Source: Acidobacteriota bacterium
GTDB taxonomy: Bacteria; Acidobacteriota; UBA6911
Length of the DNA: 64,000 nucleotides
Assembly (NCBI GenBank): GCA_012719455.1
Contig: JAAYAJ010000023.1
Coordinates: forward strand, 33,045 to 97,044
Reading direction: 5' to 3'
This document shows, in pieces, positions 15,783 to 38,400 of this stretch (the first letter of the stretch is position 1; every line of letters starts with the position of its first letter). Both the position numbers and the translations under genes were made by a program. The notes beneath the pieces are model-generated. The model had not been told where the DNA came from. It made no database searches and saw only the letters and a list, made by a program, of their open reading frames with translations.

Positions 15783-15950
15783 TCTTCGCACTGACTCCTC
15801 CTTATGTACCGTCCGGCGCCGCGAAAGCGCAGGCCCCTCCAGCCTCCGCCGCCACGGCGGGGCGGCCGGAAGAAGGCATTGTCGCACGAGTCAACGTCCC
15901 CTGCAATGGCACCCCATCGGCGGGATCTTGCACCTCGGGGCGGCGCCGTC

Positions 15951-18398: not shown

Positions 18399-18794
18399 GT
18401 CGTCCTCCCCTTTATCCCAGCCTTTATTATAGCAGCGGGCGGGGGGAAAAGGCGGCAGGGATATTGCGCCATCGGCCGCCGCGGCGGCGGGTTCCTTCCG
18501 CGGCGCCTTCCGGTTTACCGTCCCCGCTTGCCGCGATCGGCGGATCCTCCTGATGCGGCAAGCATTGCGTGGTGCCGCAGGGGAGGGGTAAAAACGGCTT
18601 TCACCCGTACACCTGCGACCGGGATGAGAGAGTTTCCCCCGCCCATGGCGCACTTTTGGTATCTTTTTGGACCCAAAGGATGGTACACAAAAAAGAACGA
18701 TCGATAACGGGGTGTGATCGATCCACGACAAACCGGGTGAAGCCTCGAAAGCAGCGCAGGGCGACACAGGATTTGCAGAAAAGGAGATCCCGAC

Positions 18795-21387: not shown

Positions 21388-23304
21388 CTACCTTGAAGTT
21401 CCGGCCAGGCCAATCTCTTCGGCGGATTTCCGCAGGACCGCACCCGCCGGAACCTTGACGACAGCACCGAATTTTGCAGGGCATGCCTTTAAGCAGGCGC
21501 CGCACTTGATGCACTTCTCATGGACGATGGTGAAAACACCCGCCTCCGACTTGTCGATGGCGTCCACCGGGCAGTTGCGCTGGCAGGCGCCGCAGGCCTG
21601 GCATTTCTCCTGGTCGATCTCGTAGGCGATGAGCGCCGTGCAAATGCCGGCGCGGCATCGTCCATGCCGGATGTGCTCCTCGTATTCCTCCCGGAAATAC
21701 TTCAGGGTGCTGGCCACCGGATTGGGCGCCGACTGGCCCAGCGCACAGAGAGATGCGACCTGCATGAATTCGGCCAGCTCCTCGAGGATTTCGAGATCCC
21801 CCTCCCGACCTTTCCCCGCGGCGATGTTGTCGAGGATGGCTAGCATCTGGCGAATCCCTTCGCGGCAGGGAACGCACTTGCCGCAGGACTCGTGTGCGAG
21901 GAAGCTGGTGTAGTACCGCGCGGTATCCACCATGCAGGTGTTTTCGTCCATGACGATCATGCCGCCCGACCCCATCATGGAACCCGCCTTGGTGAGTTCG
22001 TCAAAATCGACCGGAAGATCGAGGAGGGCCGCAGGAATGACACCGCCGGAAGGTCCACCGGTCTGCACGGCCTTGAACGATTTCCCGTCGGGAACCCCTC
22101 CGCCGATCTTGAAAATGATGTCGCGGAGCGGGATTCCCATCGAAACTTCCACCAGCCCCGTGTTTTTGACCTTGCCTACCAGGGAAAAGATCTTGGTGCC
22201 CTTGCTCCCTTCCGTCCCCATCCCACGGAACCAGTCGGCGCCCTTGTCGATGATATGGGGAACGGTGGCCCAAGTCTCGACGTTGTTCAGGCAGGAGGGT
22301 TTGCCCCAGAGCCCTTTCTCCGATGTGTGCACGTATTTGGGGCGCGGTTCACCGACACGCCCTTCGATGGCGCTCATCAGGGCGCTGGATTCCCCGGAAA
22401 CGAAGGCCCCGGCCCCGCGATGAATGACGACGTCGAAGGAGAATCCGGATCCGAGGATGTTCCTGCCGAGCAGCCCGTATTCGCGCGCCTGCTCAATGGC
22501 GATCTCGATGCTCTTGCGCGCCAGGGGATACTCCTGGCGCACGTAGATGAACCCTTCCGCGGCTCCAATCGCATAGGCGCCCAGGATCAGCCCTTCCAGG
22601 ACGCTGTGCGGGTTTCCCTGGAGCAGGCTGCCGTCCATGAAGGCGCCCGGATCCCCCTCATCAGCGTTGACAATGACATATTTCGGTTCGCCGGGAGCGT
22701 TGCGCGTGGTTTCCCACTTCCGGCCGGCGGGAAATCCGCCGCCGCCGCGGCCGCGCAGGTTGGCCTTTTTCACTTCGTGGAGCACCGATTCGGGCGTCAT
22801 TTCGGAAAGAGCCTTCGCCAGCGCGCCGTATCCGCCGACGGCGATGTAGTCCAGGATGCTGGAGGAGTCGATCCTGACGTTGTCCCCGAGCAGGACGCGC
22901 TCCTGGTGCCTGTAGAAGGGGATGTCCTGCAAGCGCTCGATGCGCTCGCCGGTTCCTTCATCGAGGTACAGGAGGTCGCGGACCGGACCTTCACCCGCGC
23001 CGAGCCCGTCGATGATGGGCGCCGCGTGCTTCGGCTGCACTTTGGTATAGCAGGTGTCGGAGGGGTGGATCACCACCAACGGGGCGCCTTCGCAGAAACC
23101 GTGGCACCCGGTCCGGCGGACGCCGACTTTGTGCCCGAGACCGCGCTTTTCGATCTCGCCATCCAATGCGTCCGCCACCGCCTCGGCGCCGCAGGCAAGA
23201 CAACCCGATCCCGTACACACCTCCAGCCAGTCCTTGGCGTTGCGCTGGGCGACGGCCTCCGCTCTCAATTTTTCAAGATCCGCGACGGTCTTCAAGCGTT
23301 TCAT
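21388..23304 (-). CDS. NuoF/HoxF-like NAD(H)-binding FMN flavoprotein subunit with N-terminal thioredoxin-like 2Fe-2S and C-terminal 2x[4Fe-4S] domains
   Basis: 638 aa. The FMN/NADH site carries the GRGGGGFPAGRKWE and ESCGKCVPCREG motifs. The C-terminal CxxCxxCxxxCP is present twice. Confidence 0.85.
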   Translation of the reverse strand: MKRLKTVADLEKLRAEAVAQRNAKDWLEVCTGSGCLACGAEAVADALDGEIEKRGLGHKVGVRRTGCHGFCEGAPLVVIHPSDTCYTKVQPKHAAPIIDGLGAGEGPVRDLLYLDEGTGERIERLQDIPFYRHQERVLLGDNVRIDSSSILDYIAVGGYGALAKALSEMTPESVLHEVKKANLRGRGGGGFPAGRKWETTRNAPGEPKYVIVNADEGDPGAFMDGSLLQGNPHSVLEGLILGAYAIGAAEGFIYVRQEYPLARKSIEIAIEQAREYGLLGRNILGSGFSFDVVIHRGAGAFVSGESSALMSAIEGRVGEPRPKYVHTSEKGLWGKPSCLNNVETWATVPHIIDKGADWFRGMGTEGSKGTKIFSLVGKVKNTGLVEVSMGIPLRDIIFKIGGGVPDGKSFKAVQTGGPSGGVIPAALLDLPVDFDELTKAGSMMGSGGMIVMDENTCMVDTARYYTSFLAHESCGKCVPCREGIRQMLAILDNIAAGKGREGDLEILEELAEFMQVASLCALGQSAPNPVASTLKYFREEYEEHIRHGRCRAGICTALIAYEIDQEKCQACGACQRNCPVDAIDKSEAGVFTIVHEKCIKCGACLKACPAKFGAVVKVPAGAVLRKSAEEIGLAGTSR

Positions 23305-24380
23305 GCCTGCGCCTCCTCCCTCTGCATTGTTTTGATGATTTTGTCAAGCCGGCTCCGGTCGGGATCCCGATAGTAGTCGCTGTCGATCTGGATCACCGGC
23401 GCCAGGGCGCAGCATCCCAGGCAATGAACGGTCTCCAGGGTGTAGGTGAGGCGGCTGTCCGTCTGTCCCGGTTGCAGACCCAGGGCGGCGGAGACCCTGC
23501 TCAGCAGTTCGGAGCTCCCCCGCACGTGGCAGGCCGTCCCGGTGCAGACCTGGAAAGAATGACGCCCCCGTGGTTCCAGGCTGAACGCCTCGTAGAAGTG
23601 CACGATTCCGTAGATCTCGCGCAGCGGAACGTCGAGTCTGCCGGATATCCATTCGAGGATGTGGCGCGGAAGCCAGTGAAACTTCTCCTGGACGTCCAGG
23701 AGCGTCTGGATGAGCGCATTCTTCCGGAAGCCGTAGCTGCGCATGATGGCGTCGGCTTGCAGGAGATCCTCGCGGATTTCGGCAATGGCGCGTCCCTTGT
23801 CCCAGGTCCGACCCAGGCTCTGCGCGTGGCGTTTCGCCTCTGTCTCGAGGCCGGCCAGCTCCTCGAGCAGCGTACGCTTTCCCATGCCCAGGGAGTAGGC
23901 TTCCTCGAGGAGTGCAAGCGCCTGAAGCAACAGGTCCTGTTTCATCCTGGGCGCGTGGGCCCGCCTGCGCAACCTGCCGAGCTCCACCCCGCGCCGCACC
24001 GACTCCAGGAGCCTTTCGGGATTGACCGGCTTGGCCAAATAATCGTGGGCTCCCAGCCGCATCGATTCCACCGCGGAATCCACCGTCCCCTTCCCGGTCA
24101 TGACGACCGGTACCGTGGCGGATGCGGCCTCGGCCAGGCGGCCGAGCGCCTCGAATCCGGCCACACCCGCAATCTCGGGATCCAGGAGTACGACGCTCGG
24201 ATTGTCCGCTTCCGCCATCCGGAGGCCCTGCTCCCCATCCCCCGCGACGGCGACGCGATAACCGTCCTCCTCCAGGATCCGGCGACAAGCCTCCGCGGAG
24301 GCGGCATCGTCATCGATAATGAGCACATCCAGCGGGGGCGATGCCTCCGGACCAATGACTGTCATCCTACGGGAATTCAT
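23301..24380 (-). CDS. response-regulator receiver domain fused to NuoE/HoxE-like [2Fe-2S] thioredoxin-like subunit
   Basis: N-terminal REC domain: DVLIIDDD, the phospho-acceptor in VVLLDPEI, VVMTG, and LAKP. C-terminal NuoE motif CTGTACHVRG...HCLGCCALAP. Overlaps the NuoF-like gene by 4 nt. Confidence 0.7.
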   Translation of the reverse strand: MNSRRMTVIGPEASPPLDVLIIDDDAASAEACRRILEEDGYRVAVAGDGEQGLRMAEADNPSVVLLDPEIAGVAGFEALGRLAEAASATVPVVMTGKGTVDSAVESMRLGAHDYLAKPVNPERLLESVRRGVELGRLRRRAHAPRMKQDLLLQALALLEEAYSLGMGKRTLLEELAGLETEAKRHAQSLGRTWDKGRAIAEIREDLLQADAIMRSYGFRKNALIQTLLDVQEKFHWLPRHILEWISGRLDVPLREIYGIVHFYEAFSLEPRGRHSFQVCTGTACHVRGSSELLSRVSAALGLQPGQTDSRLTYTLETVHCLGCCALAPVIQIDSDYYRDPDRSRLDKIIKTMQREEAQA

Positions 24381-25167
24381 AGACAACCTCTGTAATTGGC
24401 TACGTTTATGATAATGCTGCGTACCCCCGCCCGCCGACGCCCCGTCCCCGTCGGAGCTTTCCGGGCCTTGGCCCAAGGCCTCAGCCAAGTTTCCTGGGGG
24501 CCGAAATGGCATCGCTTGCGGGATTTCAACTGCCGTCATCCGGAAGGCTCGGCCTGTGCTTCTCGCGTTCTTGTGCAGTATTTACAAATGCTGTTTGCGG
24601 CAGGTCCGGTGTTTATCCTCGCCTTCCGGCATCCGCCGATCTCATTCCCGGGCGGTTCCTGTTACACTCGACGATTTGCGCCGCTTCCAGGCATGTTGCC
24701 AACCACCGGTGATTGCCAATCATGTTGAGCAAACCAGCCTTGCAGCGTTTCGGCGACAACTTCCTCCCTTTCAGAACCGTCATTGTATCGTCGCCCGCCC
24801 GAAAAACCAAGCAAGACAATGAGGCAGTCGCCGGGGGGATCGATGATGCAGCATGGCCGCCCCTTCCTCGAACCTGGAGAACGTCCGATCCAGGGGGGGG
24901 CAGCCCCGGCACGACCAGGGCGGGAATCACTCCCAGACCGGTCACCTCCTGGGACACCCACTCGAAGCCGAAGGGAGCGTCCGATTTAGCCCCATCCGTT
25001 TACTCCATCCTTTCCGCTTTCTCCGCCCGCTCAATCCGCATATAATGGCCTCAGGGTTTCTCCAGTTTCCAAGGCGTTAGAGGAAGAACTTTCCGAATCG
25101 GCGCCCGCGGCCCATTGCGCGGCAACGGACCGGTTTCCACGCGGATCCTTTACAACGGGAGGGAGAC

Positions 25168-25710
25168 ATGACGGAAAAAAAACAGACGAGCCGGAGGGAT
25201 TTTTTCCAGAACGTATCCGCCGGGGCGGCGGGGATGGCTTTTGCCAGCGTGCTGTCCACGCTGCATGCGGCCGCGGCGGCGCAGCAGCCGGACTATTACG
25301 GCAAGATGGACGTGAGCAAACTGGGGAATGTCTTGAGGGAACCCAATGTCGTTGAATTCAAGCCCTGGAAATCGATCCACTCGACGATCACTTCTCCCAT
25401 GATCACGGCATGGGGCACGGGGGACATTCCCGAGTCGAAGCTGGCGATCGGATTTGCCTATATCACCAAGCCCGACTCGCTGGGGGGAGCCACCCATTCC
25501 CATGCCCATGACCAGTGGATCTTCCTGATCGGCGGGGACGGGAAAAATTTCCTCGAATTCGACGCCGACGCCGAAATGCTGCTGGGCGACAAGGTCAGGA
25601 AGGTCAACTATTCCTGCTATTTCTATATTCCGCCCAACACGCCCCATTGCCCGCTGGTCATCAAGCGCGTCGGCAAGCCCATCGTCTTCATCGACGCGAG
25701 GATAGGCTGA
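25168..25710 (+). CDS. Tat-exported cupin-domain protein
   Basis: Twin-arginine signal SRRDFFQNVSAGAAGMAFA. A cupin-like His cluster (HSHAHDQW) is present. RBS GGGAGGGAGACATG. Confidence 0.6.
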   Translation: MTEKKQTSRRDFFQNVSAGAAGMAFASVLSTLHAAAAAQQPDYYGKMDVSKLGNVLREPNVVEFKPWKSIHSTITSPMITAWGTGDIPESKLAIGFAYITKPDSLGGATHSHAHDQWIFLIGGDGKNFLEFDADAEMLLGDKVRKVNYSCYFYIPPNTPHCPLVIKRVGKPIVFIDARIG

Positions 25711-25750
25711 CGCACCGATAGCGTCATAACCTGATGGGGTGCGGGACGCC

Positions 25751-26284
25751 ATGGTCTACCGTCACTGGTCCGCGCGCCCGGTAAAACTTGCCGGGCGGAC
25801 CTACCCGCAAAGCGGGCATCCCAAGCCGAATGGTTTCTGGTTTGACGTGGACGACAGCTGGAAGCGGTGGTGCATATCGGTGCGCTTCCGTATCGACAGG
25901 CTGCGCTACTCCCACGAGGTGACCATTCTCGACCCTTCTCGGGTCCTCTTGCTGGAAACGGCGGAAGAGATCGACCGGTTTACGCGCGCATACGGACATG
26001 ATCTTTCCTCCCATATCGAACCGTTGCAGGGACCCGAAGAAATGCGTGCGTTCGCGGACCAATACGGGCAGGACCTTTTCGCCGGTATTCGGAAGCACTT
26101 TTCCGCCTGCATCCTGTGGGGCGAAGTCGCCCAACGTCATGCCGGCATCATCGTCGCTCCCTATATCCCCGAAAGAAGCACCGCCTACCTGTGGTACGCG
26201 GGGTGGAACTGCGCCGGCGGATGCGTCTGGGATCTCAGCGTCATCCGCCTGGGCCGGGCACACCCGACCGAAACCGGCGCCTGA
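25751..26284 (+). CDS. hypothetical protein (no recognisable domain)
   Basis: ORF 25739-26284. The start is uncertain: GTG at 25739 or ATG at 25751. It lies 29 bp after the cupin gene on the same strand. Confidence 0.3.
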   Translation: MVYRHWSARPVKLAGRTYPQSGHPKPNGFWFDVDDSWKRWCISVRFRIDRLRYSHEVTILDPSRVLLLETAEEIDRFTRAYGHDLSSHIEPLQGPEEMRAFADQYGQDLFAGIRKHFSACILWGEVAQRHAGIIVAPYIPERSTAYLWYAGWNCAGGCVWDLSVIRLGRAHPTETGA

Positions 26285-26317: not shown

Positions 26318-28273
26318 TCAACGGGACTTGCGGGGGCCGTAATGCGGGACGGGGGCGCCCCGTTCGTAGGCCCCCAAATCGGGCAACCGGCCGTGGTAGC
26401 CGTCATTGACATTCGGCAGGATGATCCCGGCATCGACCGCTTTCGAGCCGGCACGCAGGCGGAAGTCCAAATCCCTCGCATCATGCAGCCTGCCGGGATC
26501 TTCCGTCGTCAGGGCCGGAACATTTTCAAAAATGTCGTAGTCCAGCAGTACGCTGTGTACATCGTGCCCGGTAGCTGCGCTGTATTCCGCCAGGGTCCGA
26601 AAACGCCGCTCGACGCGCTTTCCGGTGAAATCCGCCGCCTTCCCGAAATCGGGCGATTTCCAGATGAAGGACACCTCCGCGCCGGGGTTCGGGCGGAAAC
26701 CGTTGTAATCCGAACTGGAATAATTCGTCGCGGTATCCACGCTGAACACCTCCTGCGCGGCGCCCTGTCCCAGGATCAGGTTGTTGCGATAGTGCAGGTT
26801 GGAGGCCTGGTCCATGGAAAGCACTTCGGAGGTAAAGGTGTTGTGGTAGACAAGGATGCCCGTGCTGTTGGCGGTGAACTTGACCGATCCCCCTTCCGGC
26901 GCGTGGTACACGATGTTGCGGATGAAATAGACCGGGCCCCCGAGAACGGGTTGCGTGCTCAGCGAACGATGCGCCTGGTTGAAGCAGCGGTTACGCAGGA
27001 CCCGGATGTTGTGCATGACGCCGTCGGCCTCGATGCAGTTGTCATCCACGTTGGTGATGTCGTTATTGTAGATATCGATGGATACCGGCATCCGTTCGCG
27101 GATCGGGTCGGGGTTGCCGTCCGGCTCGCCGTACGTCGCGTGATCGATGCCGTCGTGGAAGTTCGCAACATAGTTGTAGGCGATTACGTGTCCGGAACCG
27201 TAGACCTTCACAGCCAGTTCCGAAAGGACCGGCGTAGGATAGCCGGGAGTGCCCTGCCACACCCGCCCGATCCAGCCCTCCAGCCTTTCGGGATGACTCT
27301 TGCCGATAAACGTGTTGTCGGCGATGTAGAAATCTTTCGAGCCCGACCAGTCCGTATAGATCCCTCGCCCGATATTTTCCAGGCGGCAATTCTTGACACT
27401 CAACCCCACGGCTCCCGCCACTCCCTTGTGGCCGGCCTGGAAGGCCACTTCGGTGTTGCGGATGGTCAGGCCCTCGAAATAAAGGTAATCGGCTCCCATT
27501 ACGTCAAAAAGAACATGGTTGCCGGCTCCGTCAAAGATCGCCTCGCCGTCGCCGGCCGCCACGATGGCGATCGGTTTCTCCGCCGTTCCACTCTGGCGAA
27601 AGCGGTAGGTGCCGTCAAACAGCAGGCCCAGCTGGTTCGCGTAACGATAGCGGTCTTCCCGGTAAAGACCGGCATGAACCAGAATCGTATCTCCGGGTTT
27701 CACCCGGGGCGGGTAGGCGTTAAACCAGTCCGCGCCGTTTGCCTGGGTATAAAACGCGGCCAGAAGCCCCGTGAACGAAGGCTCCTGCTTTTTCCCTTTA
27801 AACCCCGGGGGGTACACGTGGAAAACGCGTCCCCCGGCATAGGGGCGAGGTTCGGCGCGGGTGCGGACCACGAATTGCCGGCGCGCGGTGTTTTCGACGC
27901 CGTCGGGGTCAGTCATTTGGAGGAGGACCTCGTACTCCGTATCTTCCTGCAGGTCCATGATGCTGCCGGCGAACATGTTCGGCGTTACGTAATCGTAGGC
28001 GCCGTAAGTGTTGATCATTTGTTCCCGCTGCAGGCGCAGAAGCGGCAAGCCGTCACGCCACCGGTCCTCTCCCACCTTCCGGTACTGTACCGCAACGCCG
28101 GCATTGCGGTTGGCGTCGCCGTCAATGCGCCACTCAAAGCCCAGCGATATCAGCGTGGGGGGCCCGACGATGAATTCGCCCGCCCGTGTTTTGTTTTCTT
28201 CCGCCGGCAACGCAACGGCCGATAGAAACAGCGGCACCATCAAGGAGAACAGCAGTCGCAGGATTGTCTTCAC
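26318..28273 (-). CDS. secreted right-handed parallel beta-helix repeat protein (pectin-lyase-fold; possible polysaccharide lyase/hydrolase)
   Basis: GTG start with a GGGAG RBS. Signal peptide VKTILRLLFSLMVPLFLSAVALPA. Repeated short beta-helix-like segments and NxxxN-type repeats (IYNNDITNVDDNCIEADG, IRNIVYHAPEGG). Confidence 0.55.
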   Translation of the reverse strand: MKTILRLLFSLMVPLFLSAVALPAEENKTRAGEFIVGPPTLISLGFEWRIDGDANRNAGVAVQYRKVGEDRWRDGLPLLRLQREQMINTYGAYDYVTPNMFAGSIMDLQEDTEYEVLLQMTDPDGVENTARRQFVVRTRAEPRPYAGGRVFHVYPPGFKGKKQEPSFTGLLAAFYTQANGADWFNAYPPRVKPGDTILVHAGLYREDRYRYANQLGLLFDGTYRFRQSGTAEKPIAIVAAGDGEAIFDGAGNHVLFDVMGADYLYFEGLTIRNTEVAFQAGHKGVAGAVGLSVKNCRLENIGRGIYTDWSGSKDFYIADNTFIGKSHPERLEGWIGRVWQGTPGYPTPVLSELAVKVYGSGHVIAYNYVANFHDGIDHATYGEPDGNPDPIRERMPVSIDIYNNDITNVDDNCIEADGVMHNIRVLRNRCFNQAHRSLSTQPVLGGPVYFIRNIVYHAPEGGSVKFTANSTGILVYHNTFTSEVLSMDQASNLHYRNNLILGQGAAQEVFSVDTATNYSSSDYNGFRPNPGAEVSFIWKSPDFGKAADFTGKRVERRFRTLAEYSAATGHDVHSVLLDYDIFENVPALTTEDPGRLHDARDLDFRLRAGSKAVDAGIILPNVNDGYHGRLPDLGAYERGAPVPHYGPRKSR

Positions 28274-28311
28274 GATTTGGCTCCCGTTTCCTGGACCTTC
28301 TGAATTCCAGC

Positions 28312-29271
28312 CTACTTCCCGGGTTTCCTGGGGTGTCGATTGAAGAACTCGAACACATCGGGCATGGAACCCGCGATGATGCTTCCATGGTCCAGGCCCG
28401 GCAACTCCTTCCACTGGACGTCGAAGCCGGCGGCTTTGAGCTGTTCGGCCGTGGTTCGCCCCATGGCGCCCAGCTTATCCTCGCTGCCGGCGGTAAAATA
28501 GAGCGGGGTGTCTTTCAACTTCCCCTTGGGATCGGGTGAGCCGAAGCCGGCGATACAGGCAACGGCCGCCCAGACCGGTGCATATTTTTCGCCGAGATAC
28601 AGCGCCCCGGCGCCTCCCATCGAGTGGCCCATCAGGAAGATGCGGTCGTCGTCGATGTCGAATTCCTTGCGGACCAGATCCAGGACTCTCATGGTGTCGA
28701 TTTCGCTGAGTTCCGAGACCCTGGCCGGGTCGGTCTCCCTGGTTCCGCCGATGGCCGGCCCCTGCATGACGGGCATTACCTTCGGAGGAGCGGCGCGCGC
28801 AGGCCCGGGAGCCGATGGGGCGTCCTTGCGTCCAGCGAACATGTTGGTGTTGCCGAACGGGGCGGTGGGGCTGTACCCCATCACGCCAACGAGGATGTAG
28901 CCGTTCTTTTCCGCCTCCTCCACGCAACCGGAACGCATGAAGGTGCCGTAGTTTCCAAGGTATCCATGCAGCGCCAGGACCAGGGGGGCCTTCTGGCCCT
29001 TGGCGATTTTCGAGGAGACAAACACCGCGTACGGCATGTTTTCTCCGGTTTCCTTGAAGCCGTATTCGCGGATTTCCACGCGATCATCGACCGGGTCGTG
29101 GCCGGCGCGCCGGGCCTGTCCCGCGGCCTTGCCCACGGGGGGGCTGGTCACCCTGGACACCCCGGGGGGGAGCGGCTGGTTTGCCGGAACCGCTGCGTTC
29201 TGTGCATAGGCCATGATCACCAGGCACATGGAGGCTGCCGCATACAACAACATCCTGCTTGTTTTTGACAT
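28312..29271 (-). CDS. secreted alpha/beta-hydrolase esterase (phospholipase/carboxylesterase or PHB-depolymerase-like)
   Basis: Signal peptide MSKTSRMLLYAAASMCLVIMAYA. Oxyanion/His region LALHGY and the GHSMGG nucleophile elbow. Confidence 0.7.
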   Translation of the reverse strand: MSKTSRMLLYAAASMCLVIMAYAQNAAVPANQPLPPGVSRVTSPPVGKAAGQARRAGHDPVDDRVEIREYGFKETGENMPYAVFVSSKIAKGQKAPLVLALHGYLGNYGTFMRSGCVEEAEKNGYILVGVMGYSPTAPFGNTNMFAGRKDAPSAPGPARAAPPKVMPVMQGPAIGGTRETDPARVSELSEIDTMRVLDLVRKEFDIDDDRIFLMGHSMGGAGALYLGEKYAPVWAAVACIAGFGSPDPKGKLKDTPLYFTAGSEDKLGAMGRTTAEQLKAAGFDVQWKELPGLDHGSIIAGSMPDVFEFFNRHPRKPGK

Positions 29272-29281
29272 GATACACCCC

Positions 29282-30505
29282 CTATCCCGCCGCCCCGGGC
29301 GGGACACTTCCCGTTGTGTACACCTTCACCGCCTTCAGTTCCCCGGAGGGGCAGACTGACTCACAGGCGCCGCAGCCGTTGCATTTTGCAGGATCGACGG
29401 CTGGAAAGGATTCATAGGCTTCTTCATCCCAATGGATCTTGATGGCCTCATAGGGACAGGCGTTTACGCAAGCCTGGCACTCGCTGATGCCCCATAGACA
29501 CAGGAATATGTCCACGCTGGCCGTTCCGATGACATAGCTGTTTTTCTGCTCCAGGTTCAGCCGCTGCAGGGCTCCGCTGGGGCAAACGGTCGTACAGGCA
29601 TGGCAGTCATTTCTGCAGTAATCATTTTCGAACCGGACAACGGGCGACAGGAATCCGAGGACCCCGGATTGTCCCGCATCGGGATGAATGATCCCGGATG
29701 GACAGGCGCGCATGCAATTGCCGCAGCGCATACAAAGGCCCGTAAACTCATGCTCTTCAATCGCGCCCGGCGGCCGCAACGGGGCGTGGTCGGATCTTGC
29801 CGCGCCGATCTTTCGTGCCGCCAGGCTCAACCCCAGGCCGGCTGCAACCGCAACAAACATTCTCCTGCCTGCCCAAACGGCCTTTCCGCGCGCGGTTCTT
29901 CCGCCCGGTTCGACTTGGCCCGACTTTCGAAAATTCCTGCAGAAGGACCCGGCCTTTCCCAGCAGGTCCTGGGTGGCGCCCAGGGGGCAGATCCGGGCGC
30001 ACCAGAGATCCCCCGAAGTGATCTGCAACAGGATGAGCAGGACGATGCCGTACAGGGAAGCCAGGACCGCCAGGACCCCCGTCGCTCGATATACCGAAAA
30101 CGCGTTGTTCAGGAACGCCAACGGGTCCATCCACAAAAAGAGCGGATAACCCAGGATGGCGCCGGCGGCCGTCAGCAAAACGATATATTCGCCTATGGGA
30201 GGGGAACGCTTCCACCAGGTTCCGGCCGGCGATCGGACGCCGGAAACGGCATCCAACAGCAGGCCGACCGGGCAGACATAGCGGCAGAACCACCTTTTCC
30301 GCAACAGCGCGATTGCCGCAAAAGCCAGGCCGAGGATGGATCCCACCCAGATCGTTCCACCCGCCAGGATTGTACCTATCACAACGAAGGAGCTGGCTTG
30401 TACAAATACCCTGGAGCTGTCGATCCAGAAGGGGAAGGGGGACAACATGAGAATCGCGAGCAGAAAACAACCCAGCCTCACGTAGATGCGTCCTTCACTT
30501 GTCAT
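29282..30505 (-). CDS. NapH/MauN-type membrane-bound polyferredoxin (integral membrane 4Fe-4S protein)
   Basis: Multiple TM helices with CRYVCPVG and CARICPLG motifs. C-terminal ferredoxin clusters CMRCGNCMRACP, CHACTTVCP, CQACVNACP and CNGCGACESVCP. Confidence 0.7.
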   Translation of the reverse strand: MTSEGRIYVRLGCFLLAILMLSPFPFWIDSSRVFVQASSFVVIGTILAGGTIWVGSILGLAFAAIALLRKRWFCRYVCPVGLLLDAVSGVRSPAGTWWKRSPPIGEYIVLLTAAGAILGYPLFLWMDPLAFLNNAFSVYRATGVLAVLASLYGIVLLILLQITSGDLWCARICPLGATQDLLGKAGSFCRNFRKSGQVEPGGRTARGKAVWAGRRMFVAVAAGLGLSLAARKIGAARSDHAPLRPPGAIEEHEFTGLCMRCGNCMRACPSGIIHPDAGQSGVLGFLSPVVRFENDYCRNDCHACTTVCPSGALQRLNLEQKNSYVIGTASVDIFLCLWGISECQACVNACPYEAIKIHWDEEAYESFPAVDPAKCNGCGACESVCPSGELKAVKVYTTGSVPPGAAG

Positions 30506-30634
30506 TCGGGCGCACCTCCTCTCCGGCACCTGAGCCCATGTACCCCCCCTAACCGCTCATGGCGGCATAGTTCCTTCCCGTCCCCATCGTGCGCAAACGC
30601 GTTCTCGAAAAACGACGCCATCAAAGAACGATCG

Positions 30635-32113
30635 CTAAGGCAGTATGACACCCTGCTTTTTGAGGCTGGATTGCAGGGCCCCGATATCGATCTTCCTGAG
30701 ATCCACACGGCTTTTGACCGACTGGGCCGCCGCGGTGCCGGCTGCCTGCCCGAGGCAGATGCAATGGTGGATCAGGTTGAAGGCGTCATTGGTGACGGCA
30801 TCCGATGAAAACGCCCGGCAGGCGACAAGCATGTTGTTGACATTGCGCGGGATCAGGCAACGATAGGGCATGTACATCAAGGGATTTTTTTCGTCCATGC
30901 CTGGAAAGATGGCGATGGTGTCCTTGAAAGGGGTTTTGTTTTTCATATCCTTTTCAGTGACAACATACTCCCCGACAACCCGTCGGCCGCCGCGCGTGCC
31001 GAGCTGCGAATTGGACAGAACGATGAAGCTCTTTTCGAAACCGGGAACATTCTTCTTGTAAAAATCGTGGGTGATCATCATCTCCTTGCGGCCCAGAAAC
31101 TCCACCCGTGTCAACTCCTCGACGTCGTACTGGCTTTTGTTCGCGTACCGGGGAAAGCACCAGACCACGTTCTCCTGGTTTTTCAGGTTGCTGGTCAGGA
31201 ATCCCGCCGTCCCCCCCAGCTTTCTGACCTCGCGCATCTTTTCGGCCAGTGCCTTGGCGTTGGCTTTCTTGTACTGCTCATATTTTTTCAGATCGACGTT
31301 GTCGATCCAGTAGGAGAACGAAAGGTTGGAACTCCTCAGGGCTTTATCGATATGGGTCTCGAAGCGTGCCCCCGTATAGGGGAGCAGGTCCCCATCGCCG
31401 GTGGAATCGATGACGATCTTCGCCAACACCGCCTGCCGGCCCGATTTGCTTTCAAAGATGACACCCTTGGCCTGGTTTCCCTCCATGATCGGCTCTGTTC
31501 CCCACGAATGGAGGTAGGTCTTGACCCCCGCTTCCGTCATCATGTCCTGAAACAGGCACTTGGACACCTCGGCATCGATGTGGGCCGAGTATCCCACACT
31601 GTTGCTGGTGGCGTAAAAGGGGGACCGGTTCCGGTAATATTCGACCAGTTTTTTGTCCCTGGACCCCCAATGCTCCTTCTTCGGGTAATCGGCCGCCTCC
31701 CTGGCATCCAGCCTCTTGATCCACTCCTGGGTGATGCCGGCGATCTGCTGCTTGCCGTTAATATCGGTCATGGCGGGGATGATGGTGACCAATCCGCCCG
31801 TGCTCATGCCGCCGAGGTGCTCGTATCTTTCAATGAGAACCGTGTCGGCTCCGCTCCTTGCCGCAGCCAGGGCCGCGCCGATCCCCCCCGGCCCGCCGCC
31901 TACGACCACGACATCGGCCGTTCGGCACACCTTGGTCTGACGGGCGGCTTCCCTGATCGTCCCCGCGGACGCCTTTGCCGACTTGGCGGATTGGGCCGAC
32001 ACCGGAATCGCCATACCTCCGGCGCTCAAAGCAACCGCCGTGGTCCCCTTGATTGCCGTGTTCTTGAAAAACTCCCTGCGAGTAATCCCATCACTAGTAT
32101 TGGAAAGTGCCAT
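30635..32113 (-). CDS. Tat-exported FAD-dependent oxidoreductase (PF12831-like)
   Basis: Twin-arginine signal ITRREFFKNTAIKGTTAVAL. FAD-binding Rossmann motif VVVVGGGPGGIGAALAAARSGADTVLIE. Confidence 0.7.
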   Translation of the reverse strand: MALSNTSDGITRREFFKNTAIKGTTAVALSAGGMAIPVSAQSAKSAKASAGTIREAARQTKVCRTADVVVVGGGPGGIGAALAAARSGADTVLIERYEHLGGMSTGGLVTIIPAMTDINGKQQIAGITQEWIKRLDAREAADYPKKEHWGSRDKKLVEYYRNRSPFYATSNSVGYSAHIDAEVSKCLFQDMMTEAGVKTYLHSWGTEPIMEGNQAKGVIFESKSGRQAVLAKIVIDSTGDGDLLPYTGARFETHIDKALRSSNLSFSYWIDNVDLKKYEQYKKANAKALAEKMREVRKLGGTAGFLTSNLKNQENVVWCFPRYANKSQYDVEELTRVEFLGRKEMMITHDFYKKNVPGFEKSFIVLSNSQLGTRGGRRVVGEYVVTEKDMKNKTPFKDTIAIFPGMDEKNPLMYMPYRCLIPRNVNNMLVACRAFSSDAVTNDAFNLIHHCICLGQAAGTAAAQSVKSRVDLRKIDIGALQSSLKKQGVILP

Positions 32114-32570: not shown

Positions 32571-33395
32571 ATGAATCTCAGAAACGCCGCACGGATCGCC
32601 ATCATGGCGGGGGCCGTCGTGCCACTGGCCGGCTGCACCGTGCAAAATCACTTTCTCTACTACCCGGGCCGGCGCCTGCCGACGACGGGGGAACTGGGGG
32701 TGCTGAACCTCCGGTTCTGGCCTTCCGGACCCGCGGCCTATCGCGGTTTCATCGGCGCGGCCACGATTGCGGCCGCGCAGGGCACCGTCATCGTTTTCCA
32801 CGGCAACGCGGGCACCGCCGCCGACCGGGCCTACTACGCCGATGCGTTGGCCCCGCTCGGCTACCGCGTCATCCTGGCCGAGTATCCCGGTTACGGCAGG
32901 CGTGATGGAAGGCTGGGCGAAGCGCCGTTCATCAGCGATGCCAAGGAGACCCTCCGGCTGGTGTCCGGGCAATACGGAAGCCCGATCTTCCTGCTCGGAG
33001 AATCCCTGGGCTGCGGAGTGGCGGCGCGACTGGCCGGGGACAACTCCCTCCGGATCGACGGCGTACTCCTGGTCACGCCGTGGGACACGCTCCGGGCCGT
33101 GGCCGGACACCATTTTCCGTGGGCGCCGCTCCGGCTCCTGCTGAGAGACCGGTACGACAGCGTCGGGCACCTGAAAGCCTACCCGGGCAGGGTCGGCATC
33201 GTCGGCGCTGAAAAGGACGAGGTGATTCCGGTCAGGCACGCGACGGCGCTCTACGAGTCCCGCGCCGGCGACAAACGGATGTTGATCATTCCCGGCGCCG
33301 GACACAACGACTGGATGGAACGGGTCGGCCCGGGCCATTGGCGGGAGTGGATGGATTATGTCCATGGAGCGCAGGCCGACCACGGGGGCTCGTAG
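32571..33395 (+). CDS. alpha/beta-hydrolase lipoprotein
   Basis: Lipobox PLAGC. GESLG nucleophile elbow. Catalytic His near the C-terminus (GAGHND). Confidence 0.65.
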   Translation: MNLRNAARIAIMAGAVVPLAGCTVQNHFLYYPGRRLPTTGELGVLNLRFWPSGPAAYRGFIGAATIAAAQGTVIVFHGNAGTAADRAYYADALAPLGYRVILAEYPGYGRRDGRLGEAPFISDAKETLRLVSGQYGSPIFLLGESLGCGVAARLAGDNSLRIDGVLLVTPWDTLRAVAGHHFPWAPLRLLLRDRYDSVGHLKAYPGRVGIVGAEKDEVIPVRHATALYESRAGDKRMLIIPGAGHNDWMERVGPGHWREWMDYVHGAQADHGGS

Positions 33396-33497: not shown

Positions 33498-34118
33498 CTA
33501 CTTTTCCGGGGTGTCGAGCTTACAGGCGGGGGACAGAATGGCGGCCAATGCCCTGGAATTCGCCTTCAGGTCCCAGTTTCGGGGATCGGCGACAAGCCTG
33601 AGCGCGCAGCCCTCGATGAAGCTGGCGGCGATGTCCGCAAGGGATTCCCCGGTCACCCCGGGAAACCGTGCCGGTTGCTCGGCCACGACGGCCTGCGCCA
33701 GCGGCAGGTAGGAATCACGATGCCGCTTCAGTGCCTCCCGAATGCGATTGCGGATGACATCGTCGCGCGTACCCATAAACCAGAAATCGAAGAAGAGCTC
33801 GATGCGCGTCCGATCGTGTTGCAGGCGATCAAGGGCGCCCTGGACCTCGGCGGACAGGCGCGAGTAGGCGCTTTCCGGCGCAGCGCCGCTCTCCCCGCCG
33901 CGCCGCAGGATCGTCTTCGCGAGCAGCCATTCCAACAGCGCCAGCAGGAGTTCTCTCCGGCTGCGGAAATAAAAAAACACCAGGCCGTTGCTGACGCCGG
34001 CCTTCGCCGCCACGGCCCGAGTGGACAGGCCGGACAGGCGCTGCGCGAGTGCGACTTGGCAGGCGGCCTCCAGGATCTGCTCCCTCCGCCGGTCCTCGGA
34101 AACCCTTTTCCCAGACAT
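33498..34118 (-). CDS. TetR/AcrR-family transcriptional repressor
   Basis: N-terminal HTH RQRLSGLSTRAVAAKAGVSNGLVFFYF. Divergent from the RND operon. Confidence 0.8.
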   Translation of the reverse strand: MSGKRVSEDRRREQILEAACQVALAQRLSGLSTRAVAAKAGVSNGLVFFYFRSRRELLLALLEWLLAKTILRRGGESGAAPESAYSRLSAEVQGALDRLQHDRTRIELFFDFWFMGTRDDVIRNRIREALKRHRDSYLPLAQAVVAEQPARFPGVTGESLADIAASFIEGCALRLVADPRNWDLKANSRALAAILSPACKLDTPEK

Positions 34119-34204: not shown

Positions 34205-35404
34205 ATGCTCTTCCCGAATCGAAGCGTTTTGGCGATAGCGGCCCTCGCGCTCATTCTCGCGGCCTGCGGGCAGGGGAGGGAGCCGGATATCGGAATGGCC
34301 CCGCCCATCCCGGTCCGGGTAAGGAAGCCGGACGTCGTCCAGCGGCCCGTACTCGTGGCGGCCAGCGGAACGGTGGAGGCGGCCAGGACGGCCGACATCG
34401 GGTTCCAGGTTCCGGGACTGGTCACACAGGTGTGGGTCGAGGAGGGGCAGGCTGTCCGCAAGGGGCAGGTTCTCGCCCAAATCGACGCCACCGACTATGG
34501 GTTCGGCCTGCAGGCGTCGGAAGGACAGGCGGCCGTCGCACAGGCGAATCTTGACAAGGCGCAGGCGGGCACGCGCGCCGAGGAGATGGAGCAGGCGCGC
34601 GCCGCGTACGAAAAGGCCGAGGACGAATACCACCGCTACCGGCAACTCTACGAGCGGAAAAGCATGGCGCCCGTGGATTTTTCAAAAGTCGAGGCGCTAT
34701 ACCGCGCGGCCAAGGCGCAATATGAAATGGCTAAAAACGGCGCGCGCCCGGAGGATCGGGATGCGGCCGGAGCCTCCGTCAGCCAGGCCCTGGCCCAGGT
34801 GGCCGCCAGCCGCAAGCGCGTCGCCGACACGCGCCTCGTATCGCCCATTGACGGGATTTTGGCGCGGCGCGCCATCGATCCGGGCGAAAATGTGAGCGCG
34901 GGCCTGCCGGTCTTCAGCATCGTCGATCTCAGAACGGTGCACGTGCGCGTCGGAATCCCGGAAGCGGACATCGGGCGGATCCACACGGGGCAGCACGCGC
35001 GGATAACGGTCCCGGCGCTGGATGGGAGAGAGTTCCCGGGCAGGGTCGAACTGGTGGGAGTCGCCGCCGACCCAAACTCGCGTACGTTTACAGCAAAAAT
35101 CTCCGTCCCGAACCCGGATCTCCGGCTGAAGGCGGGCATGATTGCCGAAGCCAGCATCGAGGGGAGCGGCAAGATCCACGCATTCGTTCTCCCTGGGGAA
35201 GCCGTCGTCCACGATCCCCAGGGCGCCAGTCTCGTCTACGTCTATTATCCCGACCACAAACGCGTGCATGCGCGCCGGGTCGAGGCCGGCGCCGTCCGGG
35301 ATAGGGGCGTGGAAATCAGCACGGGCCTTTCCGGCGACGAACTCGTCGTCGTGGCGGGCCAGCACCAGGTGCGCGAGGGTTCCCTGGTCGAGGTGATGCA
35401 ATGA
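34205..35404 (+). CDS. RND efflux periplasmic adaptor (membrane fusion protein, HlyD family) lipoprotein
   Basis: Lipobox ILAACG. Typical coiled-coil and beta-barrel adaptor regions. Overlaps the permease start by 4 nt. Confidence 0.8.
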   Translation: MLFPNRSVLAIAALALILAACGQGREPDIGMAPPIPVRVRKPDVVQRPVLVAASGTVEAARTADIGFQVPGLVTQVWVEEGQAVRKGQVLAQIDATDYGFGLQASEGQAAVAQANLDKAQAGTRAEEMEQARAAYEKAEDEYHRYRQLYERKSMAPVDFSKVEALYRAAKAQYEMAKNGARPEDRDAAGASVSQALAQVAASRKRVADTRLVSPIDGILARRAIDPGENVSAGLPVFSIVDLRTVHVRVGIPEADIGRIHTGQHARITVPALDGREFPGRVELVGVAADPNSRTFTAKISVPNPDLRLKAGMIAEASIEGSGKIHAFVLPGEAVVHDPQGASLVYVYYPDHKRVHARRVEAGAVRDRGVEISTGLSGDELVVVAGQHQVREGSLVEVMQ

Positions 35405-38400
35405 ATCCCGTGCGCAGCTCCTTGCGGCACCCCAATGTAACGCTCATGCTGACGGCGGCGCTCGTCCTTGCCGGCGTCTATGCCCTCGCGAAAATGCCGC
35501 GGCGCGAGGATCCGCAGATCACCATACGCGCCGGGCTGGTGTCGGCCCAGTATCCCGGCGCCACGGCGGAGCAGGTGGAAAAGCAGGTCACCGCCAAGAT
35601 CGAGGAGCGGCTGTTCCGCTACGCCGAAGTGCGCAAGGACCGGACCTATTCCACCAGCCGTCCGAACGTGGTCATTATCAACGTGGAGCTGGAGGACTGG
35701 GTAACGGACCCGGACACCTTCTGGTCCAACCTCCGCCACGACATGAATCAGCTCCGCGCCACGGATCTCCCGCAGTCCGTCCGCGGACCCGTCGTGGACT
35801 CGGACTTCGGCGACACCGTCGCCGCACTGATCGCGGTCCGCGGCACCCGCTACGGGTATCGCGAGCTGAAGGAATACGCGCAGCGCATCGAGGAAGGATT
35901 ACGGACTCTCCGGCCCGTGGCCAAGATCCGACGCATCGGCGAGCAGCCGGAGGAAGTTCGGATCACCAGTTCGCTGCAACGTCTTTCGCAATACGCCCTC
36001 AATCCCGCGAAAGTCGCCGCCGCACTGCAGGGGCGCAACACCGTCGAGTATGCCGGCAGCCTGGATTCCCCCTCCGCGGAAGTTCAAATGAATCCCAACG
36101 GACCGTTCCAGACCGAGGACCAGATCCGGCGCGTGATCGTCGACCTGTCTCCCACGAGCGGCCAGCCCGTGCACATCGGGGATGTGGCCGACGTGCGCCG
36201 CGGATACAAGGACCTGGAATTTGCCACGCGCTTCATGGGAGAGCCGGCGTTGATGCTGGCGGTCGAAATGCAGGAAGGCAACAATATCGTTGAATTCGGG
36301 GACGCCCTGCGCGCCGAACTGGAGAAGGTAAAAAAGACTTTGCCTCCCGACATCCGCATCGATTTCGTGGCCGACCAGCCGCGCATGGTGAAGGAACGCA
36401 TCTCCCATTTTATCCGGGAATTCGGGGTTGCCATCACCGCCGTCATTCTCGTGACCATGCTGCTTTTGCCTTTCCACGTGGCGCTGATCGCGGCATTGGC
36501 GATCCCCATCACGGTTGCCGTCACCTTCGGCGCCATGAACGTTTTCGGCGTCGAATTGCACCAGGTTTCGATCTCGGCCCTCATCGTCGTCCTGGGAATG
36601 GTGGTCGACGACGCCATCGTGGTCGCGGACAACTACGTCGAGTTGCTCGACCACGGGGCGCCCGTGCCGGAAGCGGCATGGCGCAGCGCATCCGAAATGG
36701 CGGTGCCGGTGTTCACGGCGACCCTCACGATCGTCGCTTCTTTCCTCCCCCTGCTGATGCTTTCGGGGGCCGTCGGGGAATTCATCAGCGCCCTGCCGCT
36801 GACCGTGGCCATCGCTCTGCTCGTCTCTTTCGCCGTCGCGATGCTGGTGACGCCGCTGTTGTCGCGCTTCTTCATCAAGAAGGGGCTCCGGGAAGAAGTC
36901 CCCAACGGACTGCGGGCGCGCTTGAGCCCGCTCACCCTGATGCGGCGACGCTACATGCGCGCCATCGGCTTTTCGATGAAGCACAAGCCCCTTGTCCTCG
37001 CCGGCGCCCTGCTCGCGTTTCTCGCCGGCGTCGCGATGTTGCATTTTGTCCCGCGCCAGTTTTTTCCATCGGCGGAACGAAACCAGTTCGTCGTCGACCT
37101 GTTCGCCCCGGAAGGCACCCGAATCGAACTTACAGACGAGCTGGCGCGCCGCATCGAGAAGCACCTGGCGCAGCAAACGCCGGTGCGCGATTATTCCACG
37201 TTCGTGGGAGGCAGCGCCCCCCGGTTTTATTACAACGTGAGCCCTCAGCCGCCCGCTTCCAACTATGCCCAGTTCCTGGTGAACACGGAATCGGTGCGGG
37301 ATACGCCCCCGCTGACCTATCGCCTGCGGGAACAGCTCACGCGGCTCGTCCCCGAGGCCCTCGTGATCGTGCGCCAGCTCGACCAGGGACATGTCATCGA
37401 GGCGCCCGTGGAGGTGCGCATTTCGGGAGGCGACATCGCCAGGTTGAAGGAAATCGGCGATGGCGTGCAGCGGGTGCTGCAGGAAACGCCCGGCGCAGTG
37501 TATGTGCATACCGACTACCGCCAGGACCTGTGGCAGATGCGCATCGACGTGAAGGAGGAATCCGCCAACCGCATGGGACTCAGCAACAGTTCCATTGCGC
37601 AACAGCTGGCGGCAAGCTTCCACGGCCTTCCCGTGACGACGTTCTGGGAAGGGGATCGCGCGGTGGACGTGGTCCTGCGAGTGGAAGAGGATCGCCGGAA
37701 ATCCTTCGCCGATGTTGAGAACGCCTACGTCACGTCCTATCTCACGGGGGCACGGGTTCCGCTGCGCTCCGTCGCCTCGTTCCATCCCGAGTGGCAGAGC
37801 GGCCGCATCGTCCGGCGCAACGGCGTCCGGACGATAACGGTGCGCTGCTTTCCCGACGAGCACCGTCTCGCCTCGCAGATTCTGGCGTCGGCGGCAGGGA
37901 AGCTGGATGGCATGAATCTGCCGCAAGGGTACGCGATCGCCTTCGGGGGCGAGGCCGAAAGGCAGGCGGAGACATTCGCGGAATTGGTCCACGTATTGAT
38001 CGTCAGCATCGCGGCCATATTCCTGATCCTGCTGTTTCAGTTCCGCTCCGTCTCGGAGTCGCTGGTCGTGATGGCGGCTATCCCGCTGGCGTTTCCGGGC
38101 GCCGTCGCGGGATTGCTTCTGATGGGCAACCCGTTCGGATTTACGGCATTCATGGGCATCGTGAGCCTGGGAGGCATAGTCGTGCGCAACTCCATCATCC
38201 TGGTCGATTACATCAAAGAACGCCTGCGCGAGGGAGTCGGTCTCGAGCAGGCGGCCATGGAGGCAGGGGAGCGAAGGCTGCGGCCGATCTTCCTGACAAC
38301 GATGGCCGCGGCCGTGGGCGTGACCCCGATGATATTCTCGGGGTCCTCTCTGTGGTCGCCCCTCGCCAGCACCATCGCCGTCGGCTTGATCGTGTCCATG

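Follow-up and report, generated by a model that had tools for sequence, protein, structure and literature searches.

The present analysis concerns a stretch of 64,000 nucleotides from an Acidobacteriota bacterium (GenBank assembly GCA_012719455.1, contig JAAYAJ010000023.1, positions 33,045 to 97,044; hereafter the window). A flavin adenine dinucleotide (FAD)-dependent oxidoreductase with a twin-arginine translocation (Tat) signal (492 amino acids, 30635..32113, minus strand) is encoded there directly upstream of a polytopic polyferredoxin, in which NapH- and NapG-like parts are fused (407 amino acids, 29282..30505, minus strand). The adjacency of these two genes, which recurs in genomes of several phyla, is not a matter of chance, and we think it likely that their products constitute a coupled extracytoplasmic redox module. 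As an explanation of the whole we favour, if only somewhat, a quinol-fed module in which the periplasmic flavoenzyme acts as terminal reductase; it probably links the respiratory chain to a plant-derived compound outside the cytoplasm. In a search library that is incomplete, no paper on the pairing of such a flavoprotein with such a polyferredoxin was found.

The pair heads a row of four co-oriented genes, the other two of which encode a secreted esterase and a secreted beta-helix protein. A sequence-only reading, made earlier from the letters of this DNA, had placed the four genes at the same coordinates of the minus strand with gaps of at most 130 bp, and the gaps are indeed 129, 10, and 38 bp. 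It had also described a Tat-exported flavoprotein beside a NapH-type membrane Fe-S protein, which agrees with the signal motif TRREFFK (export being predicted), the PF12831 match of the first product, and the two PF12801 matches of the second.

Anatomy of the flavoprotein and the polyferredoxin

The flavoprotein gene, with a Shine-Dalgarno sequence (GAGGGAG) upstream of its ATG, encodes a full-length match to Pfam family PF12831 (model positions 1-416 of 416, E = 1.9e-80, 271.6 bits against a gathering cut-off of 27). Its N-terminus, MALSNTSDGITRREFFKNTAIKG...VSA|Q, reads as a canonical twin-arginine signal with an A-x-A-type cleavage site, from which export is predicted. The twin-arginine motif T-R-R-E-F-F-K occupies residues 11-17, and R12, R13, and F15 are invariant in an alignment of 40 sequences, as is the dinucleotide-binding motif GGGPGG at residues 72-77. 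The protein has 5435 homologues, which fall into more than 120 clusters at 70% identity or above. In a library of representatives at 50% identity, a threshold of E≤0.001 gives 12,543 relatives and one of E≤1e-30 gives 941; only about 5 of the 136 best representatives whose N-terminus is intact carry a twin-arginine leader. Judged from these sequences, the Tat-exported clade is a minority within a mostly cytoplasmic PF12831 family.

Other features of the flavoprotein are generic. PF00890 matches residues 67-143 only, sequence and profile searches of the solved structures in the Protein Data Bank (PDB) matched it through the Rossmann N-terminal stretch only, and the sequence has no Fe-S or haem motif, no FMN_bind, and no cytochrome domain. 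These searches gave neither a close solved structure nor a characterised member for the exported clade. Among its weak remote similarities, the best is to geranylgeranyl reductases, which are C=C reductases. The AlphaFold2 model, built with 40 homologues at 70% identity or above, was poor (predicted local distance difference test, pLDDT, 59.8), and Foldseek searches with it returned generic two-domain FAD folds with template-modelling (TM) scores of at most 0.39.

For the polyferredoxin, residue numbers refer to the 415-residue open reading frame (ORF) that reaches a GTG at 30529; 8 is subtracted for the 407-residue protein, whose start at M9 matches an identical database protein (P0241). The sequence-only reading had called this product a NapH/MauN-type protein with four ferredoxin clusters. 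Its NapH-type character and its clusters hold up, but it is a NapH-NapG fusion rather than a plain NapH/MauN protein, and on sequence it is the NapG-like half that contains the four ferredoxin-type clusters. Fer4_5 (PF12801) matches twice, together with ferredoxin dicluster domains. The NCBIfam NapH models match residues 47-194 and the NapG/MauM models residues 226-403, with the NapG-profile match beginning at residue 226, within helix 5, the hydrophobic stretch after the RR motif.

The NapH-like membrane part (29948..30487, minus strand), delimited by hydropathy and by cysteine and proline residues that are invariant in 12 sequences and across 29 loci, contains the CX3CP motifs C82-C86-P87 and C177-C181-P182. 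These follow the second and fourth of four strong hydrophobic helices (residues 15-33, 58-76, 116-134, and 152-170) and are predicted to face the cytoplasm. The positively charged loop after helix 4 ends in R222-R223, directly before helix 5 (residues 224-242). This internal twin-arginine motif and the fifth helix lie at 29804..29866 (minus strand). Helix 5 is the least hydrophobic of the five, with a Kyte-Doolittle value of 1.45 versus 1.78-2.65 for helices 1-4, and is trailed by arginine and lysine residues (...AARKIGAARS). The NapG/MauM-like domain (29321..29779, minus strand; TIGR00397, 8.4e-22; NapG NF007012, 1.4e-21), predicted to be periplasmic, opens with an LRPPGA motif and has four cysteine motifs starting at C266, C305, C344, and C383. 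The two CX3CP motifs, R222-R223, LRPPGA, and 16 cysteines do not vary among 12 aligned sequences and are likewise conserved in the alignment of 29 loci, and homologues at 39-50% identity retain RR, helix 5, and LRPPGA.

A protein of this kind has been described in strain MLMS-1, a delta-proteobacterium whose polytopic polyferredoxin (PFD, Q1NSB0) is also a NapH-NapG fusion (Tooke et al., eLife 2017, PMC5449189). Reporter fusions showed that export of its fifth helix depends on Tat and on the RR motif, and handover from the general secretory (Sec) to the Tat pathway requires low hydrophobicity of helix 5 and trailing positive charges; of its seven clusters, three lie on the cytoplasmic side and four outside (PMC5449189). 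Like MLMS-1 PFD, the window polyferredoxin is a five-helix NapH-NapG fusion with RR directly before a weakly hydrophobic helix 5, positive charges after it, and four cysteine motifs in the predicted exported domain. In contrast to MLMS-1 PFD, it has only 407 residues, its helix 5 is at 224-242 instead of 338-359, and it lacks the additional cytoplasmic ferredoxin-type cluster region, so that it does not reach seven clusters. Only the two CX3CP motifs precede helix 5, and an extra cytoplasmic ferredoxin motif is present in one distant homologue (L037). By its sequence features, the window polyferredoxin therefore has the published dual Sec/Tat architecture in a shorter variant, since the extra cytoplasmic cluster region is missing. 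Because of this family membership, and from the internal RR and helix 5, its NapG-like domain is predicted to be periplasmic. The study of MLMS-1 PFD dealt with membrane insertion only and named neither a partner nor a function, whereas the window module has a conserved flavoprotein partner.

Pairing across genomes

The sequence-only reading had proposed that conservation of the pair be examined across genomes. A scan with one genome per species gave 55 loci with flavoprotein relatives, from Acidobacteriota (mostly 85-90% identity, second copies 69-74%), Desulfatiglans, Desulfatiglandales, and Desulfobacteraceae (68-82%), one Phycisphaerae (71%), and Dehalococcoidia (59-68%). By tblastn, the polyferredoxin gene lies directly downstream of the flavoprotein gene or genes in about 29 loci. 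Among flavoprotein copies with enough flanking sequence, for which the polyferredoxin was sought within 4.5 kb downstream, it was found beside 33 of the 39 Tat-bearing copies, across phyla, and beside none of the 16 signal-less copies, 13 of which are from Dehalococcoidia. The paired copies come from metagenome-assembled genomes (MAGs) of Acidobacteriota, Desulfatiglans, and Desulfobacteraceae. The pair is thus syntenic in relatives, and the absence of the polyferredoxin from the Dehalococcoidia homologues, which also lack the Tat signal, strengthens the argument for coupling.

The distribution of the signal follows the paralogue types. All full-length non-Dehalococcoidia copies of the two main types (A and B) carry [ST]RRxF[FV][KR]. 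A third type (451-482 residues; L016, L017, L025) has no signal, and neither do the Dehalococcoidia copies, which start a few residues before the FAD-binding fold. In Desulfatiglans, two tandem flavoprotein paralogues are followed by a weakly Nramp-like membrane gene and then by the polyferredoxin gene.

The association reaches well beyond these relatives. A scan of metagenomes seeded with the polyferredoxin alignment extended to homologues of 39-50% identity, and in six such loci (L065-L070) the gene directly upstream is a PF12831 member with 32-36% identity to the window flavoprotein. Tat motifs (TRRELM, NRRDCL, and TRRECL) are present in L065, L067, and L068, the loci where the N-terminus of the flavoprotein is on the contig. 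As far as these sequences indicate, the pairing is old and tracks the export signal of the flavoprotein, because it is kept at 32-36% flavoprotein identity and is absent where the signal is absent. This pattern is as expected if the polyferredoxin is the electron partner of the flavoprotein. We conclude that the adjacency is not due to chance, because it recurs both in the great majority of Tat-bearing copies and at deep divergence.

Three observations on the variants of this arrangement may be added. First, the 417-residue membrane protein with weak, sub-cut-off similarity to Nramp (4.9e-11) occurs in nine loci (L014, L016, L017, L019-L021, L031, L035, and L038; e.g., L014:13028-14281). All belong to the Desulfatiglans/Desulfobacterales group, defined by titles naming Desulfatiglans, Desulfatiglandales, Desulfobacteraceae, Desulfobacterales, or unclassified Deltaproteobacteria. 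Its gene mostly lies between the second flavoprotein paralogue and the polyferredoxin and, in L038, immediately upstream of that for the flavoprotein. The protein is possibly a transporter that forms part of the module. Second, Dehalococcoidia (L042-L044 and L048-L052; e.g., L052:657-7521) have two tandem signal-less flavoprotein paralogues, about 62% and about 51% identical to the window protein. They adjoin a gene for the alpha part of an indolepyruvate:ferredoxin oxidoreductase (IOR) fused to a GltD-like NADPH-oxidoreductase domain (1101 residues), and several of these loci add an aldehyde:ferredoxin oxidoreductase (AOR) gene. The Dehalococcoidia copies are presumed, from their sequences, to be the enzyme's cytoplasmic counterpart, served by another electron partner. 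Third, in the near-identical organism of assembly GCA_900198705.1 (L061:6734-7639), the flavoprotein gene is truncated to 301 residues, with different genes upstream (a 7TM-HD protein and an electron transfer flavoprotein fragment); the polyferredoxin, esterase, beta-helix, and both convergent genes are intact. The truncation reflects either a rearrangement or an assembly join.

Proposed electron flow and its alternatives

In the mechanism that we propose, the Sec pathway would insert helices 1-4 of the polyferredoxin, and the internal RR motif would hand helix 5 and the folded four-cluster Fe-S domain to Tat, thereby bringing the NapG-like domain to the periplasm. The flavoprotein would be exported separately by Tat. 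On the model of NapGH, NosGH, and Sulfurospirillum's NapGH-like quinol dehydrogenase, the menaquinone pool would be the redox partner of the NapH-like membrane part, and electrons would move between the periplasmic clusters and the flavoprotein's FAD in one direction or the other. Secreted esterases and glycosidases may release a substrate from esterified plant-cell-wall-type material, and the module would serve as a quinol-fed terminal reductase of a small product of esterified hemicellulose that is unsaturated or can be reduced in some other way.

The module is a variant of a known arrangement, in which a NapGH-type unit serves a redox enzyme of the periplasm. In the organohalide-respiration region of Sulfurospirillum multivorans, a quinol dehydrogenase (Qdh) resembling NapGH has been proposed to feed PceA (PMC4585668). 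As with NapGH, NosGH, and Qdh, a NapH-type membrane protein and a four-cluster NapG-type ferredoxin are encoded beside a Tat-exported terminal enzyme. Unlike those systems, the window module has one polypeptide instead of two, its partner is an FAD enzyme and not a molybdo-, copper-, or corrinoid enzyme, and the window locus has no nap, nos, or rdh genes. The polyferredoxin also falls below the equivalog cut-offs (76.8 bits versus 269 for NapG and 53.9 bits versus 234 for NapH). An assignment as accessory proteins of the Nap nitrate reductase was rejected on these sub-cut-off scores and on the lack of a molybdoenzyme gene (napA) in the locus and related loci.

Two further families offer comparisons. 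NapH-like proteins have been portrayed as modules that conduct electrons to reductases or oxidases outside the cytosol, NosR, PceC, and their relatives being flavinylated systems of this kind (Meheust et al., eLife 2021, PMC8238504). The window polyferredoxin shares with them the PF12801 membrane-to-extracytosolic conduit; however, those systems carry or accompany an ApbE-flavinylated flavin mononucleotide (FMN)-binding domain, whereas the window protein uses a NapG-like Fe-S domain. Signal-peptide-bearing flavin reductases of gut bacteria respire cinnamates including ferulate, and their cytosolic relatives lack the signal (bioRxiv 10.1101/2022.12.26.521950). The window flavoprotein resembles these exported FAD_binding_2 reductases, which act on fumarate, urocanate, acrylate, and cinnamate, in being a signal-bearing flavoenzyme with electrons presumed to come from the membrane, in the multiplication of paralogues within genomes, and in the existence of cytosolic relatives without a signal. 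It differs from them in belonging to PF12831, with PF00890 confined to the N-terminal dinucleotide-binding stretch, and in having a polyferredoxin partner. By analogy, it may work like the respiratory enoate reductases FccA, UrdA, and Crd/Cir, though it is not a member of their family.

The gene neighbourhood bears on the substrate. All predicted proteins of the loci were clustered, and the cluster representatives were checked against Pfam and NCBIfam. In a count over 49 loci (37 of the exported clade and 12 from Dehalococcoidia), at least one esterase-family gene is present in 29 of the 37 exported-clade loci (64 genes in 623 kb) versus none of the 12 Dehalococcoidia loci. Seven families are represented, i.e., COesterase, PF00756, Peptidase_S15/CocE, GDSL, tannase/feruloyl esterase, BD-FAE, and the window's own type. 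The earlier suggestion of an extracytoplasmic pathway combining redox chemistry with ester hydrolysis is a fair summary of this recurrence. Other recurrent neighbours include a GH51 arabinofuranosidase (glycoside hydrolase families are abbreviated GH), a sugar ATP-binding cassette (ABC) transporter, an Old Yellow Enzyme (OYE) ene-reductase, MtaA/URO-D-like methyltransferases, and major facilitator superfamily (MFS) transporters, and in L067 a GH120-like beta-helix gene lies directly upstream of the pair. The role as a periplasmic reductase, with hydroxycinnamates as the leading guess for the substrate, is suggested because the neighbours include feruloyl-type and other carbohydrate esterases, an arabinofuranosidase, sugar uptake, a cytoplasmic ene-reductase, and methyltransferase-fold proteins. 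We regard the reductive direction of electron flow as evenly balanced, and a hydroxycinnamate substrate, with ferulate as the leading candidate, as doubtful.

Several points weigh against this explanation. Of the 39 Tat-bearing copies, six stand without a polyferredoxin gene beside them, at least three of these being from MAGs or loci with a linked copy in another place; one homologue of the polyferredoxin (L073) likewise has no flavoprotein gene as neighbour. The loci are phylogenetically related and have probably spread in part by gene transfer, and the pairing counts are then not independent events. Contact between the flavoprotein and the polyferredoxin is predicted only. NapH-type modules also serve oxidases (PMC8238504), and the sequence does not fix a direction. 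The flavoprotein belongs to PF12831, not to FAD_binding_2, the family to which known respiratory enoate reductases belong; neither an FMN-binding nor a cytochrome partner accompanies it, and its poor structural model, with generic matches, says nothing about the substrate. Finally, esterase families differ between loci, and the beta-helix gene is in only three loci of this family. The hydroxycinnamate idea is hence a guess taken solely from gene neighbourhood, since the esterases vary and the beta-helix gene is sporadic.

The main rival explanation, which we consider unlikely, is the same module running in reverse. The exported flavoprotein would then be a periplasmic dehydrogenase, oxidising what the hydrolases set free (a sugar, alcohol, or aldehyde), and the quinone pool would receive the electrons by way of the NapG-like clusters and then the NapH-like part. 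This would suit the glycosidases and sugar transporters among the neighbours (GH51, GH97, GH120-like, and a sugar-binding protein) and the occurrence of NapH-like conduits with an extracytosolic alcohol oxidase (PMC8238504), and it is equally compatible with a sequence that fixes no direction. However, characterised NapGH-type units are described as quinol dehydrogenases that feed reductases (PMC4585668), exported copies in the flavin reductase survey are typically respiratory reductases (bioRxiv 10.1101/2022.12.26.521950), and the remote similarity of the flavoprotein, weak evidence though it is, is to C=C reductases and not to sugar oxidases.

A second alternative, which we find improbable, dispenses with quinones. 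In such a transmembrane wire, electrons given up in the cytoplasm by ferredoxin or by NAD(P)H-linked enzymes would enter at the CX3CP sites and be relayed across the membrane to the periplasmic clusters and to the flavoprotein. In the literature, by contrast, NapH-type proteins are viewed as oxidising quinol (PMC5449189, PMC4585668, PMC8238504). The polyferredoxin does lack the C-terminal cytoplasmic dicluster region of NapH and has no quinol site recognisable by sequence, and the cytoplasmic Dehalococcoidia homologues adjoin ferredoxin-dependent oxidoreductases (AOR and IOR). In the window, a NuoE/NuoF-like pair is found at a distance of 1.6 kb, but NuoEF-like genes are not conserved beside the pair in other loci.

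That the adjacency reflects co-transfer or a maturation role, as proposed for MauM and MauN, which are NapG and NapH homologues tied to maturation rather than respiration, or that the genes act independently, is highly improbable: identities of 60-90% across phyla do suggest horizontal transfer of a cassette, but the pairing persists at 32-36% flavoprotein identity, long past any single transfer, it strictly tracks the Tat signal, and there is no other conserved exported redox protein to mature.

If a quinol-fed module with a terminal flavin reductase is indeed what these genes encode, exported PF12831 proteins and Sec/Tat NapH-NapG fusions might together form an unrecognised, widespread periplasmic respiratory class with products freed from esterified plant cell walls, ferulate and other hydroxycinnamates among them, as terminal acceptors, a generalisation that we advance tentatively. 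Such a class would serve anaerobic sediment bacteria (Acidobacteriota, Desulfatiglans, Desulfobacteraceae, and possibly bacteria of the Planctomycetes-Verrucomicrobia-Chlamydiae, PVC, type). For the polytopic polyferredoxins this would be a first role in physiology: work on the NapH-NapG fusion has until now been confined to its use as a model of membrane insertion, and a conserved partner would supply a function. If respiratory for plant-derived compounds, the module would be an added electron sink or source in the carbon turnover of anoxic sediments. The theme of many exported flavin reductases would then extend from gut bacteria to environmental phyla, with a different enzyme family. The strict link between the signal peptide and the polyferredoxin makes the idea of coupling directly testable.

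Accessory genes and other features of the window

Downstream of the pair, a 319-residue alpha/beta-hydrolase carboxylesterase with a Sec signal peptide (28312..29271, minus strand) matches Pfam Esterase PF00756 (4.9e-8, 33.5 bits, cut-off 22) and has the nucleophile elbow GHSMGG. Its best solved relative is the compost carboxylesterase LC-Est1C (3wyd, 1.3e-27). Assignment as a polyhydroxybutyrate depolymerase was rejected, the models for it scoring below their cut-offs. Its gene follows the pair in L002, L003, L004, L006, and L061-L063 only.

The last gene of the row (26318..28273, minus strand) starts with GTG and encodes a 651-residue protein with a Sec signal peptide. Its AlphaFold2 model (pLDDT 89.5, predicted TM score 0.91) has an FN3-like N-terminal beta-sandwich followed by a right-handed beta-helix. 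Foldseek placed GH28 exo-polygalacturonase and polysaccharide lyase family 6 (PL6) enzymes nearest (TM 0.25-0.48), and no PDB entry matched by sequence. In precomputed annotation, this protein and its homologues are assigned to PF22842 (Pel9A-like). The local Pfam scan reported only sub-threshold Beta_helix and Chondroitinase B matches, with PF22842 unreported even at E≤10. The model and the annotation point to an enzyme of the uronate-polysaccharide type, without assignment to a family; a firm PL9 assignment was rejected, the annotation sources being inconsistent.

The beta-helix family comprises more than 6,600 proteins, with members of 60-70% identity in Gammaproteobacteria and Bryobacteraceae. 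Its gene stands beside the pair only in the near relatives of the window and, in the Desulfatiglandales locus L017, in another position. The esterase and beta-helix genes are therefore best described as variable accessories, the beta-helix family being found mostly away from the pair. The two secreted genes noted in the sequence-only reading are present, but the four-gene set as such is kept only in near relatives (L006 and L061-L063). A fixed four-gene operon as the conserved unit was accordingly rejected, since only the flavoprotein/polyferredoxin pair is widely conserved. Identical proteins occur in the same gene order in Acidobacteriota MAGs (L062 and L063), which places the window in an uncultured sediment lineage of that phylum.

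Two plus-strand genes converge on the row. The sequence-only reading had named a Tat-exported cupin and a hypothetical gene, and both genes are there; the twin-arginine N-terminus of the former (SRRDFF) is present as well, while the cupin call is weak. This 180-residue protein (25168..25710) begins with SRRDFFQN, matches TAT-signal models at the borderline, and scores 15.7 bits against Cupin_2 (E = 0.012), below the cut-off of 27.2. A copy with 92% identity is found in L006, and distant homologues (cluster c4) are in 11 of all fetched loci, corresponding to 10 of the 49 in the neighbourhood count. The second convergent gene (25739..26284) encodes 181 residues with no Pfam or NCBIfam match and no signal peptide and is found in near relatives only (L006 at 84%, and L061-L063).

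On the other side of the row, a divergent plus-strand gene (32571..33395) encodes an alpha/beta hydrolase (Pfam Hydrolase_4 and Abhydrolase_1) with a lipoprotein-type N-terminus (...PLAGC). It is called as 274 residues in the same organism and is possibly a further esterase of the locus. The intergenic region at 32.1-32.6 kb has no inverted repeats. Between 24.5 and 34.5 kb, matches to promoters and terminators did not exceed chance; the sigma-54 promoter pattern occurred at chance level, with none on the operon's strand upstream of the operon. The G+C content of the window is 58-69%, and no tRNA or Rfam elements were found in it.

Other hydrolases and neighbours deserve mention. A type-B carboxylesterase (40916-42511, minus strand; COesterase, 2.4e-112) belongs to the cluster that is the commonest neighbour in the other loci, and a 669-residue alpha/beta-hydrolase/Peptidase_S9-like protein is encoded at 18795-20804 (plus strand). 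UGSC-family proteins (PF24696), often with a 134-residue partner, occur near the module in 7 of the 37 exported-clade loci (L001:14986-16710, L002:14234-15892, L010, L011, L015, L028, and L039).

The NuoE/NuoF-like pair consists of a response-regulator receiver domain fused to a NuoE-type [2Fe-2S] thioredoxin-like ferredoxin (23301-24539, minus strand) and, with a 4-bp overlap, a NuoF-like protein of 638 residues with C-terminal ferredoxin motifs (21388-23304, minus strand). In the same organism (L062), a 2Fe-2S/4Fe-4S protein follows. The pair may form a regulated NADH-linked redox complex.

Further from the module, a 1466-residue protein (35401-39801, plus strand) joins a whole RND transporter (ACR_tran, 1.2e-187) to an outer-membrane factor domain (OEP, residues ~1280-1460); inner- and outer-membrane components in one polypeptide are unusual. 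Its gene is preceded by those for an adaptor protein (34205-35404, plus strand) and a TetR regulator (33498-34118, minus strand). A large glycyl-radical enzyme (15951-18767, minus strand) matches a model of the pyruvate formate-lyase (PFL) type (2.1e-145) and Gly_radical, and an ORF with a radical-SAM domain lies far from it at 46113-47489. A 426-residue ORF (14607-15887, minus strand) is matched across residues 44-418 by the 218-position model of F420-0:gamma-glutamyl ligase, which implies a large insertion or a duplicated domain. Finally, a pyridine-nucleotide disulphide oxidoreductase (7478-9196, minus strand) that ends in a rhodanese domain at its C-terminus shows an architecture like that of CoA-disulphide reductase.

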